Shown: positions 48,957 to 54,508 of the stretch, in pieces
Layout of the letters: each line of letters opens with the position of its first letter
Numbering within the stretch: position 1 is the stretch's first letter
Assembly (NCBI GenBank): GCA_963807065.1
Contig: CAWDZQ010000003.1
Span: 1,056,427 to 1,120,426 of the forward strand
Direction of reading: 5' to 3'
Source: an uncultured Chloroflexia bacterium
GTDB lineage: Bacteria; Chloroflexota; Anaerolineae; Anaerolineales; E44-bin32
Length of the DNA: 64,000 nucleotides
Program-made: the position numbers and the translations under genes
Notes under the pieces: generated by a model
Database searches by the model: none
Seen by the model: the letters and a program-made list of their open reading frames with translations, nothing else
Told to the model about the DNA's origin: nothing

Positions 48957-49622
48957 ATGTCATCTGCGGCTAGGATGAACAGGATCCCAGCCCCTACATG
49001 CCAAAAGAGTGTCGTGTCCAAGCACAAACGACGGTCGAAGACCAGCCTGAAAGCCAGACTTCGTCGCCCCGCCTATTTCATCCCGGGGGCTGTATTGCTC
49101 CTTGCCTTGGCGCTCAGCCTGTCAAGCATGGTCTATGCCGCCCATCTTGAGGGGTCGGACAGCTTCTGCGCATCCTGTCATACGCAGCCCGAATCGCAGT
49201 ACTTTGAAAGGACGCAGCAGCAGACTTCGGTGGATCTGGCCAGCTTCCATCAGACGAAGGACATCCGCTGCATCGATTGCCATTCGGGCTCGGGTGTGAC
49301 CGGTCGCGTTGGAGCGTTTATGGTGGGCGGCAAGGATCTGGTGGCCTTCCTCACCCACACCGACCATCAGCCCGCTCCGCTCACCGTCCCGATCGGCGAC
49401 GGCAATTGCCTCAAGTGCCACAGTGACGTGACCCAGACCCGCAGCTTCAATCGGCACTTCCATGCTTTCCTTCCGCAATGGCAGGCCCAAGACCCCAATG
49501 CTGCCTCATGCGTCGACTGTCACACGTCGCACACGACCGGCGGGGATTCCTCCCTGCAGTTCCTTCAAGAGGGGCCCACAGGGCAGGTTTGCCAGGATTG
49601 TCACGGCTCGTTCCACAGGTAA
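48957..49622 (+). CDS. membrane-anchored multihaem c-type cytochrome (NapC/NirT-like, five CxxCH)
   Basis: 221-aa ORF with one N-terminal TM helix (AYFIPGAVLLLALALSLSSMVYA) and haem-binding motifs CASCH, CIDCH, CLKCH, CVDCH and CQDCH. The start could be ATG 48975. Confidence 0.85.
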   Translation: MSSAARMNRIPAPTCQKSVVSKHKRRSKTSLKARLRRPAYFIPGAVLLLALALSLSSMVYAAHLEGSDSFCASCHTQPESQYFERTQQQTSVDLASFHQTKDIRCIDCHSGSGVTGRVGAFMVGGKDLVAFLTHTDHQPAPLTVPIGDGNCLKCHSDVTQTRSFNRHFHAFLPQWQAQDPNAASCVDCHTSHTTGGDSSLQFLQEGPTGQVCQDCHGSFHR

Positions 49623-49898: not shown

Positions 49899-51365
49899 CT
49901 AGGGACCTTGGATGATCAAGGGCAGGTAGAAGGTATGAGGGGGCACAGTACTCACGAGCGTTAGAGCCGAATCCACCTGGACCCGAGGTTTGCTGACGCC
50001 CGGGTTGCCATTTCGTTCATCGGTAATGATCACCCCGGAAGACGTCAGCGCCGAAAGCACGTCGCTGACGCTTGCATCGGGTGCCTTCGATTTAACCAGC
50101 GCCCAGACCCCGGCGACATGCGGTGCCGCCATGGACGTACCGTTCCAGGTCTGGAATCCTCCCCCCGGAACCGACGATGTGATTGTCGAACCTGGCGCAA
50201 ACAGCGACATCAAGGCTGAGACGTTGGAATAGGAGGCGACCCTGTCTGCCCCTCCGGATGTGTCCGAATCGGTGGATGCTCCCACGCTGATGGCGGTCGA
50301 GATGCACGCCGGCAAGGCGAGGGCATTGGTGAAGGCGCTGTTCCCGGCGGCGATCACCGTGGCGATTCCGGCACTGCGCAAGTTGTCGATCGCCAGTTTG
50401 CGCGGATCGTCATCACAGGCACTTGTGTAACCCCCGCTGCCCAAACTCATGTTGGCGGCGGCGATGTTGTAGCTGCTGCGCAGGCTGTACACCCAATCCA
50501 AGCCGCTTATCTGATCGGACGGGTAGCTGAGAGCACAGGGGGCGAGCAATCCATATCCACTGCAAGTGGCCTCGTCAAATTGGGAGAAGATCTGGACGGC
50601 AATCAAATCGGCGTCCCTGGCTACGCCCGAGAAGGTCGTCCCCTTTCCGGCAGCGATGCCGGCCACGTGAGTGCCATGGTCACAACCTTCCGTAGTGATC
50701 GGGCAGTTGACCCCAGCACCAGGGCCAATTTGTTCGGGCAGGCCATTCGGGCAGACTGTATAGTCGGTTGAACCCCCGCCCGAGAAACATGCCTCGGCAA
50801 CAACTTTCCCGCTCAAGAAGGAATGAGAACTATCGACACCGGTGTCAAGAATGGCGACGGCCCAACCTGTTCCCGTGTAGCCGGCGGCCCATGCGCTGTC
50901 GGCGCCGATCAGGGGAACGCTCGACGCCAGAGTTGGCGGTTCAAGCTCATCAGGCTGAACGCTCTCGACCTCCGGGCTGTCCTGGAGATCCTGGAGCTGT
51001 TCGGGTGTGACCTGCATCGCCATGAGCGGCAGGTTGGCGTATTTCCTGGCTGTGAGCTGCCCACGTTGCGCCAGACGGTCGATCACCGCCCGTTGTGCAT
51101 GGGCGATTCGCTCACGCTGCTCCGCCGCTACCGCAGGATCGCCAGCAGCACTCGAAGAGAATCCGACTCGCAGACGGACGATGACCCTGACCTGGCCGTC
51201 CAGCCTGGCCCGATCGACCAGGGCGTCCATCGGCGTCCCATCCCGCCCGAACGCTGTGCCCTGCCGTGCTGACGCCGCCGTCGCGCTCATTCCGGTGAGC
51301 GCGACCAAGATTGTGGCCAAGAGGATCGTCAGCCCTACTCTTCGCAGCGTATACGAAACTTTCAC
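49899..51365 (-). CDS. secreted subtilisin-family (S8) serine peptidase with N-terminal propeptide
   Basis: 488-aa ORF with a signal peptide and the catalytic triad contexts AILDTGVD, CDHGTHVAGIAAG and NGTSMAAPHVAG. Confidence 0.92.
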   Translation of the reverse strand: MKVSYTLRRVGLTILLATILVALTGMSATAASARQGTAFGRDGTPMDALVDRARLDGQVRVIVRLRVGFSSSAAGDPAVAAEQRERIAHAQRAVIDRLAQRGQLTARKYANLPLMAMQVTPEQLQDLQDSPEVESVQPDELEPPTLASSVPLIGADSAWAAGYTGTGWAVAILDTGVDSSHSFLSGKVVAEACFSGGGSTDYTVCPNGLPEQIGPGAGVNCPITTEGCDHGTHVAGIAAGKGTTFSGVARDADLIAVQIFSQFDEATCSGYGLLAPCALSYPSDQISGLDWVYSLRSSYNIAAANMSLGSGGYTSACDDDPRKLAIDNLRSAGIATVIAAGNSAFTNALALPACISTAISVGASTDSDTSGGADRVASYSNVSALMSLFAPGSTITSSVPGGGFQTWNGTSMAAPHVAGVWALVKSKAPDASVSDVLSALTSSGVIITDERNGNPGVSKPRVQVDSALTLVSTVPPHTFYLPLIIQGP

Positions 51366-51743: not shown

Positions 51744-53786
51744 TCAGAGCCAGCCGAGAATATGGAGGTGGCGATAGAACTCTGCGCCTGCTACAAGCGC
51801 CAGGCGGCCCTCCGACTCGTCCGCCAGGGACTTGCAGGCATTGGTGAAATCAGCCGTCGTGACGAGGTAACCCCCGAGGCAGTCCCCTCGCTCATCGACC
51901 ATCTCCAACAGTGCCCGGCCTTCGGCAACGCCGATGTTCTTCTCGCCGCGGACCAGACGTCCCAAAGCCTTCTCTTCTCCCCTCGGACCTAGGCGCCAAG
52001 CGAGCACATCCTGCTGGAAGCCCTCGCCCTCTTCAGCGGGGGTCTCCAACCGCTGAGCGTGCGGGAATCCCAGCCCATGCATCAGCTGCTCGAGGGCCCG
52101 CAGCAGCTCTTCTTCTGAAAGAGCCTCCAGCTCCAGCCGCAGACTGGACGTGCCGGGAAGCAGGCCAGTGGTTGGGGCATGATCAGCCGGTTTGGCTCTC
52201 TGCCTCTCTTCGCCGAGGGAAAAGACCGACCCCAGCCAATCACGCATGGATAGTCGTTCTTCTAACTCGGCCGGCTGCGTGCCATCAGGCAGGTCGCGCG
52301 GCAGCAGATGGCGCTCATCCAGCAGTTGGTGGAGACTTTGATCGTGAGTGTCCGCCACCCAGAATTCGTAAATATTGAGCGGGGTCTCTGGCCGCAGCTC
52401 GGGGTAGAAACGAATTTCGGCCCGGCTTCGGCGGGCGGAATTCCAACTGACATCGAAATGCAAGAGGTGCGAGGCAGGCATTGGCTGGCCGTCACCACGG
52501 GCCTCCAGGTCGGCAAGGAGCAGATGGCGCCGGTCGTCTCTCCGAAAGGAGCTCAAGATCTGATCCCGCTCGAGCTCGGTGGCTGAGGACGGCAGGCGCA
52601 GAGCACCGTAGGCCTCCAATGGAGGCACCAGTTGATCCAGGGCGCGCTCGCCGTACTGGCTGAAGACGATCAGCTTATCCCCACCGGCGGCGACGCTCTC
52701 CAGCAGGTCAAGCAAGGCACGCATCTTAACACCGTCAAAACTTCCGGGGGCAAAGGCTGTGGCTTGATTGAGCCTGGCCAAGGCCGTTTCAACATGGGTG
52801 CGGGTCACCGCGCTACCCAATTTCGTCAACCGATGGCGCTCCTCCGCCAGGGCCTCACCGTAGGCCCCTCGCTGCTTTTCATCCAGGTCCAACCAGATCT
52901 CGGAACGCTTCTTGGCGCCCAACTCGGAGCGCATCTCAGCTTTGGTCCGTCTCAGGTAGTAAGGAGCGAAGCGCTCTCGCAGGTTGATCAGGGCATCCTG
53001 CGGCCCAGGCAGGGGTTCCTGGGGGAGCAGAAAATGGAACAAGACGCGCCAGTCGTCGTTGTCAGGCGGCAGGCCGCCGGCCAGGGCCCATCGACGCCGA
53101 ATGGGGAGGGCGGCCAGCGAGCTGAAGGGCTTGGGGAAGAGATGAATGGCGGCCAGCGCCGAGTTGACCAGCAGCACGTCAATGGCCTGCTCTTTGGGAT
53201 CCAGGCTGCCTCGATTGAAATCCTCGGCGAAAACCTGGAGGGTGGTCAAAATCACATTGGCGCCCGACCTCCACGCCCGACGCCGCGCCAGGGCTTCTCC
53301 CTTCGCCAACAGCACGTCCACCGCCGGACACCACTCCTCCAAAAGGCCGGCCCACATTCGGATCTGCGAATTGGGACTCAGGATGACGATCCGACGAGCC
53401 AACCCCTGCTGAAGCAGGGCGCCCAGCGCCAGACAAGCACTCAGCCGCTTGCCGGTACCCTCGTCATCGGCAACCAGCAGCGACGGTTCAGCCAGAAGGG
53501 CTTGAGCGGCCTGGCGGACATGATCCGGGATGGGCTCTGGCAACGGAGGGTTTTCCAGTGTCAGCGCCGGCGGTGCCAAACGAGGGATAACGGTCGCCAG
53601 AACATCTGTCCCGTCTGGGTCGTCCATGGGGATCGGCAGCGGCGCCGGCCCGGAGAGGCGGCCCTCCATGTAACCGGGAAGCCGCTCGCCGATGGGGCCG
53701 GCAATGGGCCAGACCTTCCACTCCGGGGCTTCGATGCCTGGAGCGTCCAGCCGGGCGGCACGCGTGACCTGCCCCGGTTCGGCCAT
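51744..53786 (-). CDS. SNF2-like helicase-fold protein with degenerate ATPase motifs, fused to a C-terminal Mrr/restriction-endonuclease-like domain (may extend to GTG 53994 if a 1-nt insertion in the G-run 53845-53850 is removed)
   Basis: 680-aa ORF with SNF2-type motif order. Motif I-like LLVADDEGTGKRLSA. Motif II position IDVLLVNSALAAIH (no DExx). Motif III-like RRRWALAGGLPPDNDDWRVLFHFLLP. Motif IV KLIVFSQY. Motif V/VI region HLLHFDVSWNSARRSRAEIRF. The C-terminus LEQLMHGLGF...QQDVLAWR...LVRGEKNIGVAEGRALLEMV...GYLVTTADFTNACKSLA...LALVAGAEFYRHL resembles Mrr_cat. Confidence 0.75.
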   Translation of the reverse strand: MAEPGQVTRAARLDAPGIEAPEWKVWPIAGPIGERLPGYMEGRLSGPAPLPIPMDDPDGTDVLATVIPRLAPPALTLENPPLPEPIPDHVRQAAQALLAEPSLLVADDEGTGKRLSACLALGALLQQGLARRIVILSPNSQIRMWAGLLEEWCPAVDVLLAKGEALARRRAWRSGANVILTTLQVFAEDFNRGSLDPKEQAIDVLLVNSALAAIHLFPKPFSSLAALPIRRRWALAGGLPPDNDDWRVLFHFLLPQEPLPGPQDALINLRERFAPYYLRRTKAEMRSELGAKKRSEIWLDLDEKQRGAYGEALAEERHRLTKLGSAVTRTHVETALARLNQATAFAPGSFDGVKMRALLDLLESVAAGGDKLIVFSQYGERALDQLVPPLEAYGALRLPSSATELERDQILSSFRRDDRRHLLLADLEARGDGQPMPASHLLHFDVSWNSARRSRAEIRFYPELRPETPLNIYEFWVADTHDQSLHQLLDERHLLPRDLPDGTQPAELEERLSMRDWLGSVFSLGEERQRAKPADHAPTTGLLPGTSSLRLELEALSEEELLRALEQLMHGLGFPHAQRLETPAEEGEGFQQDVLAWRLGPRGEEKALGRLVRGEKNIGVAEGRALLEMVDERGDCLGGYLVTTADFTNACKSLADESEGRLALVAGAEFYRHLHILGWL

Positions 53787-53995
53787 CCGGGCCCCGTTGA
53801 CCCGCAGGATGCTCGGCCTGTGCAGACCGGCGGGCAGCTCCTGAGGGGGGCTTTCGACTATGAGATGGAGTATCTTCTGCAGCGGGAAGGGTGAAGCGGG
53901 CGCGTTCGAGGAGGACCAGATCCCGGGCGCCTGCCAGCCGGGGACGCCTCAATGGCGAGACTGTCCGGCCGGTGGAGAGACGGATGGGCGACACG

Positions 53996-54508
53996 CTACT
54001 CCTTCGATGCTGCGCCGACGTTTAAGGTGTGGGCTTCTTCAAGCGCGCTCTTAATTCGGAGGAACGGCTCCAGGATGCTTCTGCCTCGCAGCCGCTTGGG
54101 CAAGGAATCGCGCACCTGCTCGGCCTCCTGATCGAAGCCGGGGAAAGCTTGCAGGACAAACTGACCGTCGACCGTCCCCCGCACCCACAGGATGGGAAAC
54201 TCGACCATAGGGCGGACTTTGAGGAACTCGGCGTCCCGCACAAGCACGAAATCCGGTTTGGACTCAAGGGTCTGAAGAATAGGAAGCCCCAACAAATCGT
54301 TGCAAACGTATTCGTGGAGGGTGTCGCCGTAGAGGACCTTCTGCAGGCTGGTGGGCCGGACGGCACCGCTGACTCGAAACTCCAAGGGCCGGGTCAATCC
54401 ATCCGTGACCAGACAGCCGCCACGAAGGGCCTCACCTTCTTCGAAGGTCGCCATATCCAGAAAAGCGACGACCTTTTCCGCTCCGTCCTGTTCCTTCGAG
54501 TCCGCCAT
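53996..54508 (-). CDS. hypothetical protein (170 aa), family not recognised
   Basis: ATG with GGAGG 9 nt upstream. Sequence: MADSKEQDGAEKVVAFLDMATFEEGEALRGGCLVTDGLTRPLEFRVSGAVRPTSLQKVLYGDTLHEYVCNDLLGLPILQTLESKPDFVLVRD... No signal peptide or TM segment is evident. Confidence 0.6.
   Translation of the reverse strand: MADSKEQDGAEKVVAFLDMATFEEGEALRGGCLVTDGLTRPLEFRVSGAVRPTSLQKVLYGDTLHEYVCNDLLGLPILQTLESKPDFVLVRDAEFLKVRPMVEFPILWVRGTVDGQFVLQAFPGFDQEAEQVRDSLPKRLRGRSILEPFLRIKSALEEAHTLNVGAASKE

Follow-up and report, generated by a model that had tools for sequence, protein, structure and literature searches.

What does a pair of adjacent genes do when it is kept at one chromosomal position across a bacterial lineage and the larger of its two products lacks the catalytic residues of both its ATPase and its nuclease domains? 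This question is raised by two minus-strand genes found in a stretch of 64,000 nucleotides (nt), hereafter the window, from an uncultured Chloroflexia bacterium (GCA_963807065.1, contig CAWDZQ010000003.1, positions 1,056,427-1,120,426; GTDB lineage Bacteria; Chloroflexota; Anaerolineae; Anaerolineales; E44-bin32). The first gene codes for a protein of 170 amino acids (aa) with an Endonuclease V (EndoV)-like fold, and the second for an SNF2-like protein that carries an Mrr-like domain at its C-terminus. The pair probably derives from an undescribed helicase–nuclease module that was inactivated and became fixed in the core genome, and its products would form a non-catalytic nucleic-acid-binding complex. 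No description of it has been found in the literature searched. Its interest is threefold. First, a large protein family without a model in Pfam, PADLOC, NCBIfam or PHROGs has now been identified, and it is the obligate partner of SNF2(-Mrr) proteins. Second, the module offers a natural experiment, with catalytic motifs intact in some lineages and both sites lost under continuing strong selection in others, so that non-enzymatic roles of the SNF2 and restriction-endonuclease folds become directly testable. Third, if the intact relatives are a defence or repair system, the locus would document the takeover of such a module by the core genome in a poorly studied phylum.

Domains and catalytic motifs of the large protein

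The genes of the pair, and the domains and motif positions of the large protein, are the following (motif positions were read from the alignment described below):

53996-54508, minus strand: small partner gene, 170 aa, an open reading frame (ORF) with its TAG stop at 53996-53998
51744-53994, minus strand: SNF2–Mrr-like gene in its true extent, 749 aa once an extra G is removed, as established by tblastn and by the protein P0384 of another assembly
53679-53994, minus strand: N-terminal tail of about 105 aa, predicted to be disordered, which opens with the conserved peptide VSPIRLSTGRTVSPLRRP
52800-53486, minus strand: SNF2 lobe 1 (RecA1), aa 101-329 of the 680-aa ORF in the window, Pfam SNF2-rel_dom, E 2.8e-11
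52431-52727, minus strand: SNF2 lobe 2 (Helicase_C-like), aa 354-452, a marginal match to Pfam Helicase_C (E 1.3e-4, 22.6 bits against a cut-off of 23.5)
51771-52127, minus strand: C-terminal Mrr-like domain (PD-(D/E)xK fold), aa 554-672, Pfam Mrr_cat, E 1.3e-6
53445-53459, minus strand: motif I (Walker A), GTGKR, with Lys kept and Thr/Ser replaced by Arg
53154-53174, minus strand: motif II position, LLVNSAL, without the catalytic Glu (Asn codon at 53163-53165)
53067-53087, minus strand: motif III position, ALAGGLP in place of LTGTP
52401-52430, minus strand: motif VI position, RSRAEIRFYP in place of QAEDRAHR, with the first Arg kept and the Gln and second Arg lost
51939-51962, minus strand: QxK position of the Mrr-like domain, GRLVRGEK (Q to R, K to V), aligned with QCKRY of distant-clade relatives

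The large protein belongs to the two-lobed SNF2 family, as indicated by SNF2-rel_dom (43.5 bits against a cut-off of 24.9), by Helicase_C and by structure. The second lobe is aligned by phmmer to Fft3 and Swr1, and the Foldseek search with the two-lobe core found the Rad54-like protein of Sulfolobus solfataricus (SsoRad54, PDB 1z63) as the best match (E 3e-22, template modelling (TM) score normalized to the target 0.68), with ZorD (8qy7) also matched. The C-terminal domain matches the Mrr_cat profile with 28.9 bits against a cut-off of 21, together with a weak match of the protein to NA-iREase1, the Pfam model named for inactive restriction endonucleases. AlphaFold 2 (AF2) models both RecA lobes (RecA1 and RecA2) and the Mrr-like domain of the orthologue P0002 as well folded, and the predicted local distance difference test (pLDDT) score falls below 50 at residues 1-103, the region that opens with the VSPIRLSTGRTVSPLRRP peptide conserved across the close clade.

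The state of the catalytic motifs has been read from an alignment of 65 non-redundant members of the window's clade with four distant members of the family and eight ordinary SNF2 helicases. Of the 65 clade members, 59 keep the Walker A Lys and 44 the Thr/Ser that follows it, and the window sequence departs from GxGK[T/S] at this last residue. Motif II has its Asp in 59 of the 65 proteins and its Glu in only two (those of loci L002 and L021); the window has no DExx at this position. The TGTP of motif III, canonical in the distant-clade relatives, is found in none of the 65, and motif VI retains its Gln in three and its first Arg in 56, the second Arg being lost; neither TGTP nor QxxxRxxR is present in the window. 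The Gly-rich part of motif V has also disappeared. In the Mrr-like domain, where the distant relatives have DxG[IV]D…QCK, the clade reads …R-C-[ILMV]-R and the window G-R-L-V-R, and both the Q and the K are absent from all 65 members (0/65 each); the window protein has no D…(Q/E)xK site. Read from the sequences, both catalytic centres of the large protein are gone in the window's clade. On the other hand, several segments with structural or DNA-contact roles in SNF2 proteins have been retained, among them the motif Ia-like LIxCP…W, the motif IV KxxVFSQ, LRRxK and HFDxxWNP.

An initial annotation, made from the window sequence, had described GTGKR, LLVNSAL, an AGGLPPDN segment and RSRAEIRFY as degenerate motifs, and all four are upheld by the alignment with canonical relatives of the same family. 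Its statement that motif II lacks DExx holds with respect to the Glu; the Asn is specific to this assembly, since P0384 and the closest relatives read LLVDSAL, still without the Glu. Its doubt about an intact triad in the Mrr_cat-like domain (E 1.3e-6) was also well placed, the QxK having become R-L-V. With regard to L002 and L021, both combine GKT with a DE dipeptide in motif II (VVLDELQ) and lack TGTP and a canonical motif VI; to judge by these motifs, they may be intermediates that still hydrolyse ATP.

The small partner and its fold

More than 139 close homologues of the small protein (56-89% identity) come from metagenome-assembled genomes (MAGs) of Anaerolineales/Chloroflexota, and an exhaustive profile search recovered 1461 cluster representatives at E≤1e-3, so that this family alone amounts to at least 1461 clusters at 50% identity. 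The AF2 model (pLDDT 91.9) shows an RNase H-like β-β-β-α-β-α-β fold of the EndoV type. Foldseek ranks EndoV first (4xpu, E 1.9e-5, probability 1.0, TM 0.52; 3ga2, TM 0.57), followed by PIWI domains of prokaryotic Argonautes and by RNase H1. The assignment to an EndoV/RNase H-like fold is solid; by itself, such a modelled fold need not imply nuclease activity. At the sequence level, no match was found for the small protein in Pfam, PADLOC, NCBIfam or PHROGs, and 50 diverse members of the family gave no Pfam or NCBIfam match either, which sets them apart from the EndoV sequence family. The family profile, when searched against PDB sequences, returned no EndoV and only chance matches (Rheb and the giant-virus repeat protein Crov588).

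The residues conserved throughout the family are D36, P41, E43, F44, R45, T/S47, P52, Q56, Y60, G61, R99, E147, P148, F149 and R151. Another set, formed by D18, D62, E66, E158 and H160, is shared by the close clade. Conservation is lower in the wider family: D18, where a site of the RNase H/EndoV type should have its β1 Asp, is present in 29% of distant members, E66 in 23% and H160 in 62%. The small protein is therefore a member of an undescribed family without a family-wide catalytic tetrad. A predicted protein of 332 aa (P0330) combines a ribosomal protein L7/L12 domain with a homologue of the small partner, to which 56% of the query aligns at 56% identity. Either the two were fused by the gene caller, or the small gene adjoins rplL at this locus.

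Linkage, synteny and selection

The SNF2-like gene lies directly downstream of the small gene, on the same strand, in 51/51 distinct loci of the close clade with at least 1.5 kb of downstream sequence, a count that includes one locus (L042) where the match is fragmented by indels. The gap between the stop of the small gene and the start of the large one is 1 nt in the window and usually 1 nt in the close clade, and across the family it takes values of -4, 0, 1 or 4 nt. Together with the Shine-Dalgarno-like AAGGAG that lies inside the end of the small gene in the window, this short distance points to translational coupling, as far as the sequence allows it to be predicted.

The surroundings of the pair are conserved as well. 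The order of genes in the window is nuo – murE – DedA/VTT – GT4 – small gene – SNF2-like gene – S8 peptidase; of the 47 loci whose sequence extends far enough on the upstream side, 45 have murE there, flanked by nuo and atp genes. The pair occupies a fixed core position in Anaerolineales, where it is probably inherited vertically, and it has long been retained, since the MurE proteins of the loci that carry it have diverged to 54-60% identity. Across 31 loci, the small protein has a median identity of 72% to its counterpart in the window, MurE one of 58% and the SNF2-like protein one of 41%; in 30 of the 31, MurE is less conserved than the small protein. When the window is compared with the related locus L006, the proportions of nonsynonymous and synonymous differences (pN/pS) are 0.149/0.716 for the SNF2-like gene, 0.059/0.727 for the small gene and 0.193/0.649 for murE, and RecA1, RecA2 and the Mrr-like domain are each constrained. 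The dN/dS ratio is about 0.07; such ratios are rough, since synonymous sites are saturated, and pN is far below pS. The 'dead' large protein is clearly under purifying selection.

Distant relatives with intact motifs

Relatives of the small protein at 30-45% identity show the same association: in all metagenome loci that extend at least 1.5 kb downstream (50/50), an SNF2 gene directly follows the small gene on the same strand; loci L057-L060 and L068-L070 additionally agree. The distant-clade SNF2 proteins carry canonical GTGKT, DEAQ/DEAH, TGTP and QAEDRAHR motifs and come in two architectures, one of about 780-860 aa, in which the Mrr site (DGGID…QCK) is intact, and another of about 680-750 aa without the Mrr domain. 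In all parts of the family, the SNF2 protein starts with a similar peptide (h-R/Q-x-h-G/A-x-x-h-[AS]-P-h-x-x-P). Genomic contexts in the distant clade are heterogeneous: a type I restriction-modification (R-M) system is adjacent in 2/23 loci and the other neighbours are unrelated genes. A conserved third gene was considered and rejected on account of this heterogeneity. Three scans of viral contigs found no relatives. The best PADLOC and NCBIfam matches of the intact relatives are the cores of ZorD, DpdE and 'SCO1167/pilus-regulating Snf2', far below the equivalog cut-offs.

Two arrangements within this distant group deserve mention. In L068 (9022-12588), the SNF2 protein has 622 aa, intact motifs and no Mrr domain, and the small gene is immediately preceded by a separate, divergently transcribed Mrr_N–Mrr_cat gene, in a neighbourhood that also includes an HNH gene and a transposase; from this arrangement it follows that the nuclease can come from a separate gene instead of a fused domain. 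In L066 (3836-5344) and L067 (2333-3685), the Walker A motif is broken right after GTGK by a sequence that resembles the N-terminus of an intein (…ADDMGTGK|EQPLDARLLTPVGWVTMGDVQVG…), and the insertion is probably an intein in the P-loop.

Proposed function and its alternatives

The explanation that we favour is that of a core complex derived from an active module. In the ancestral module, a small subunit of EndoV fold would have been paired with a canonical SNF2 ATPase that in many cases carried an intact Mrr-type nuclease as a fused domain, and this module would have been fixed at a single place in the chromosome of an Anaerolineales lineage. The window's clade has lost the residues for ATP hydrolysis and coupling (motif II Glu, TGTP, motif VI Gln and second Arg) together with the nuclease QxK, and it retains the fold, the DNA-contact segments of motif Ia/IV type, the Walker A Lys in most members and the partner gene under strong purifying selection. 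The two proteins may well form a complex, because the large one displays a conserved N-terminal peptide on a disordered tail, the genes appear to be translationally coupled and their linkage is absolute; the small protein would dock on that tail. Since both lobes and the restriction-endonuclease (REase) fold have been retained and the catalytic residues have not, a non-enzymatic DNA- or RNA-binding role is most likely, in which the complex would bind nucleic acid via the dead SNF2 lobes and the dead Mrr domain and would serve as a sensor, scaffold or regulator that neither translocates nor cleaves and that at most binds ATP as a switch. Judging from its motifs (GKR and D/N-S), the sub-lineage of the window has probably lost even nucleotide binding. 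A precedent for a dead DNA binder of SNF2 type exists in DndH, whose inactive SWI2/SNF2-type domain has been proposed as a DNA-binding module (Aravind lab, NAR 2024, PMC10853773). One may go further and propose, tentatively, that a widespread, unnamed two-gene module was domesticated in Anaerolineales into a core complex without ATP hydrolysis or DNA cleavage, in which the almost invariant small subunit has a housekeeping role on DNA or RNA and the dead motor–nuclease serves as its scaffold, and that the intact relatives are a new helicase–nuclease surveillance or defence system in which the EndoV-fold subunit does the sensing; this extended version is possible rather than probable.

Homology, motif loss, linkage, synteny and selection are what the analysis shows, and from them the formation of a complex, its binding of DNA and its lack of enzymatic activity are inferred. 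Several points weigh against a non-catalytic complex. The large protein is 'dead' as predicted from its sequence, and some members of the clade may still bind or slowly hydrolyse ATP, because the Walker A Lys persists in 59/65, motif II reads DD in 12/65 and DE is kept in L002 and L021. In the small protein, D18, D62, E66, E158 and H160 might form an RNase H-like site in the window's clade, in which case the complex might still cut nucleic acid by way of this subunit. Finally, the large gene is frameshifted in this assembly and, if the frameshift is real, the copy of this organism is broken.

The second of these points leads to the best-surviving alternative, that the pair is a working defence or DNA-surveillance system in which the EndoV-fold protein would be the active nuclease, with the dead SNF2–Mrr protein as its scaffold for DNA sensing or recruitment. 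The fold of the small protein, related to EndoV, PIWI and RNase H, agrees with it, as does the conservation of D18 (β1), D62/E66 (α1), E158 and H160, which reaches 93-100% in the close clade at the positions expected for an RNase H-type site. In addition, intact relatives sometimes adjoin type I R-M, Mrr, HNH or transposase genes, and an analogous pairing of an RNase H-fold (PIWI) protein with a helicase–nuclease is known from DdmDE (PMC11795196). However, the close clade is about 73% identical overall, so that conservation within it says little, and the acidic and His positions are not kept in the wider family, as the values for D18 and E66 given above illustrate. Fixed synteny, conservation above that of MurE and a very low dN/dS are atypical of defence genes, and the pair has no PADLOC match and no match on viral contigs. 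We therefore consider this alternative unlikely for the window. A defence-like reading, itself unproven, fits the distant clade better, given its intact motifs and variable context.

A less probable alternative is that the SNF2-like protein remains an ATPase motor working through non-canonical residues, the changes being divergence and not loss of function. The persistence of the Walker A Gly/Lys (59/65), the motif II Asp (59/65) and the first Arg of motif VI (56/65) is consistent with such a motor, and so are the conserved HFDxxWNP and LRRxK and the DE of L002 and L021. Nevertheless, 63 of the 65 members have no catalytic Glu and none has TGTP, neither the Gly-rich part of motif V nor the second Arg finger survives, and the lineage of the window combines GKR with D/N-S; relatives of the same family keep every canonical motif, so that the alignment is not in doubt. 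Conservation of the motor is thus improbable, and the non-catalytic complex stands as the preferred explanation.

Comparison with known systems

In the PADLOC and NCBIfam searches, the large protein of the window obtained partial matches to the ATPase cores of ZorD, DpdE, DrmD and 'pilus-regulating Snf2', all far below the cut-offs. Close in architecture is ZorD of type I Zorya, an SNF2/DEAD-box helicase with an Mrr-like nuclease domain (PMC11890865). Both proteins combine an SNF2-type ATPase core with an Mrr-like domain, and the ZorD models of PADLOC are among the best for the window protein and the best or near-best for the intact relatives. However, ZorD has about 1000-1200 aa as opposed to 749, and the window protein scores 14.6 bits with the ZorD equivalog NF041790, whose cut-off is 1500. 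Moreover, no ZorA, ZorB or ZorC is found among the neighbours in the window or in the syntenic loci, which are GT4, a DedA/VTT protein, MurE, nuo genes and the S8 peptidase; the obligatory partner of the window protein is a different small protein, and the window version lacks the ATPase and nuclease catalytic residues. DISARM (DrmD), Dpd (DpdE) and BREX (BrxH) share only partial core matches with the window protein, without full-length agreement or the corresponding partner genes, and no methyltransferase, PLD or dpd genes are adjacent to the pair.

The best structural match is the SsoRad54 core (PDB 1z63/1z6a; E 3e-22, TM (target) 0.68-0.70), which also matches in sequence across both lobes. 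SsoRad54 is, however, an active translocase on double-stranded DNA with canonical motifs, and it has neither the Mrr domain nor the disordered N-terminal tail nor the small partner. The model of the small protein resembles Endonuclease V (Nfi) in 4xpu, 3ga2, 3goc and the 6oz* entries (E 1.9e-5 to 1e-3, TM 0.5-0.57), but the small protein is about 50 residues shorter, shows no sequence-level relationship to Pfam, PDB or NCBIfam entries, and does not conserve the β1 Asp and the other catalytic positions across its family. The resemblance to DndH lies in an inactive SNF2-derived module, presumed to bind DNA, beside a domain of restriction-endonuclease fold. DndH contains the second lobe only and works in a multi-enzyme defence complex with an REase domain that its authors treat as active, whereas the pair in the window keeps both lobes, has a dead REase domain as well and occupies a core-genome location. 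Another parallel is that of DdmDE, where an SF2 helicase with a PD-(D/E)xK nuclease (DdmD) acts with a separate prokaryotic Argonaute of RNase H fold (PIWI), DdmE (PMC11795196). This logic would fit the intact relatives by analogy only, no homology having been detected; the small protein has no MID or PAZ domain and the helicase is of SNF2 type, not DdmD-like. DdmDE and ZorD are the closest analogies for the intact relatives, which would be members of neither.

These comparisons bear on what the initial annotation had proposed. It had placed the 170-aa protein in no recognisable family, relied on linkage of the two genes in other genomes and fitted the pair to no named system, and on each count the databases, the 51/51 close and 50/50 distant loci and the partial, sub-threshold PADLOC and NCBIfam matches bear it out. 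Its candidate for an undescribed system has proved to be a module that has no name, whose two genes are strictly linked and whose small subunit is novel. The role in phage defence that it suggested is not supported for the window copy, given its fixed core synteny (murE in 45/47), its small protein more conserved than MurE in 30/31 loci and the loss of both catalytic centres.

Gene model and frameshift

Two ORFs are present on the minus strand of the window, 51744-53786 (680 aa) and 53996-54508 (170 aa), and the initial annotation had drawn a two-gene module at 51744-54508 from them. Both are real and lie on the same strand, as it stated, but the boundary of the large gene was misplaced, with 69 N-terminal aa and a frameshift overlooked. 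The features that correct it are the following:

53999-54004, minus strand: AAGGAG, a Shine-Dalgarno-like hexamer read from the sequence, within the last codons of the small gene, 4 nt before the GTG that starts the large gene
53907, minus strand: extra G (CTCCTC-G-AACGCG), the cause of the frameshift, pinpointed by comparison with P0384

The 680-aa ORF is the in-frame C-terminal part of the 749-aa SNF2–Mrr-like gene, which starts at GTG 53994, 1 nt past the TAG of the small gene, so that the 209 nt between the two ORFs (53787-53995) are coding and not intergenic. Homologues of the large protein have about 70 additional N-terminal residues that open with MSPIRLSTGRTVSPLRRP, and the window encodes the same peptide from GTG 53994, in a frame that differs from that of the 680-aa ORF. 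When the full-length protein of L006 is used in tblastn, its residues 1-29 map to 53994-53908 and its residues 35-749 to 53891-51747 in the other frame; in L006 and L007, the same N-terminal region is in frame. DNA alignment and tblastn thus place one extra base between 53908 and 53891. P0384, a protein from an independent, near-identical assembly, has 749 aa and is intact; its N-terminal peptide is the same as in the window except for the start residue (M for V, at the GTG start), and across the 680 aa there are two differences, one of them at motif II; at each, P0384 has D where the window has N. Intact SNF2-like ORFs of about 750 aa are found in dozens of short-read assemblies and in dozens of species.

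The frameshift at 53907 is most likely an assembly indel, because P0384 is intact, the nuoN-like gene of the window is likewise frameshifted and related MAGs contain broken genes; those with 'contig_N'-style contig names, which are possibly long-read assemblies, show many split genes. Programmed frameshifting at this position was rejected, since the orthologues, including the near-identical P0384, are in frame. That the locus is a decaying pseudogene remnant, as might be read from a frameshift that cuts the conserved N-terminal peptide off the main ORF, from the dead motifs and from two D-to-N differences (one in motif II), is highly improbable in view of the near-identical intact copy, the frameshifted nuoN and the split genes of related 'contig_N' MAGs, the dN/dS of about 0.07 with every domain constrained, and the intact ORFs across dozens of species.

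The two Asp-to-Asn sites lie at codons 53163-53165 and 53370-53372 on the minus strand, and both are G-to-A changes in a CGANTCG context (GANTC in P0384, AANTC in the window). Miscalls related to methylation could account for them, and so could true polymorphism; in a check for systematic miscalls, GANTC was found 195 times in the window against about 223 expected, and it is thus not clearly depleted.

Other observations in the window

At about 59402-59417, a frameshift divides the nuoN-like gene (58378-59833, minus strand), which codes for an NADH-quinone oxidoreductase subunit of the Proton_antipo_M family, into two overlapping ORFs; its orthologues are single proteins of about 484 aa, and errors of the indel type in the assembly are thereby suggested. 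The gene that comes next downstream of the module, at 49899-51365 on the minus strand, is that of the S8 subtilisin-like peptidase; in the closest relative (L001/L010) it appears as three ORFs, another sign of indel errors there. An Rfam search of 49-57 kb returned only a sub-threshold miRNA match inside coding sequence, judged to be due to chance, and a scan for sigma-70 promoters gave nothing useful. Finally, a gene at 48957-49622 on the plus strand codes for a protein of 221 aa that is anchored to the membrane at its N-terminus, carries the haem-binding motif CxxCH five times and looks like a multihaem cytochrome c.

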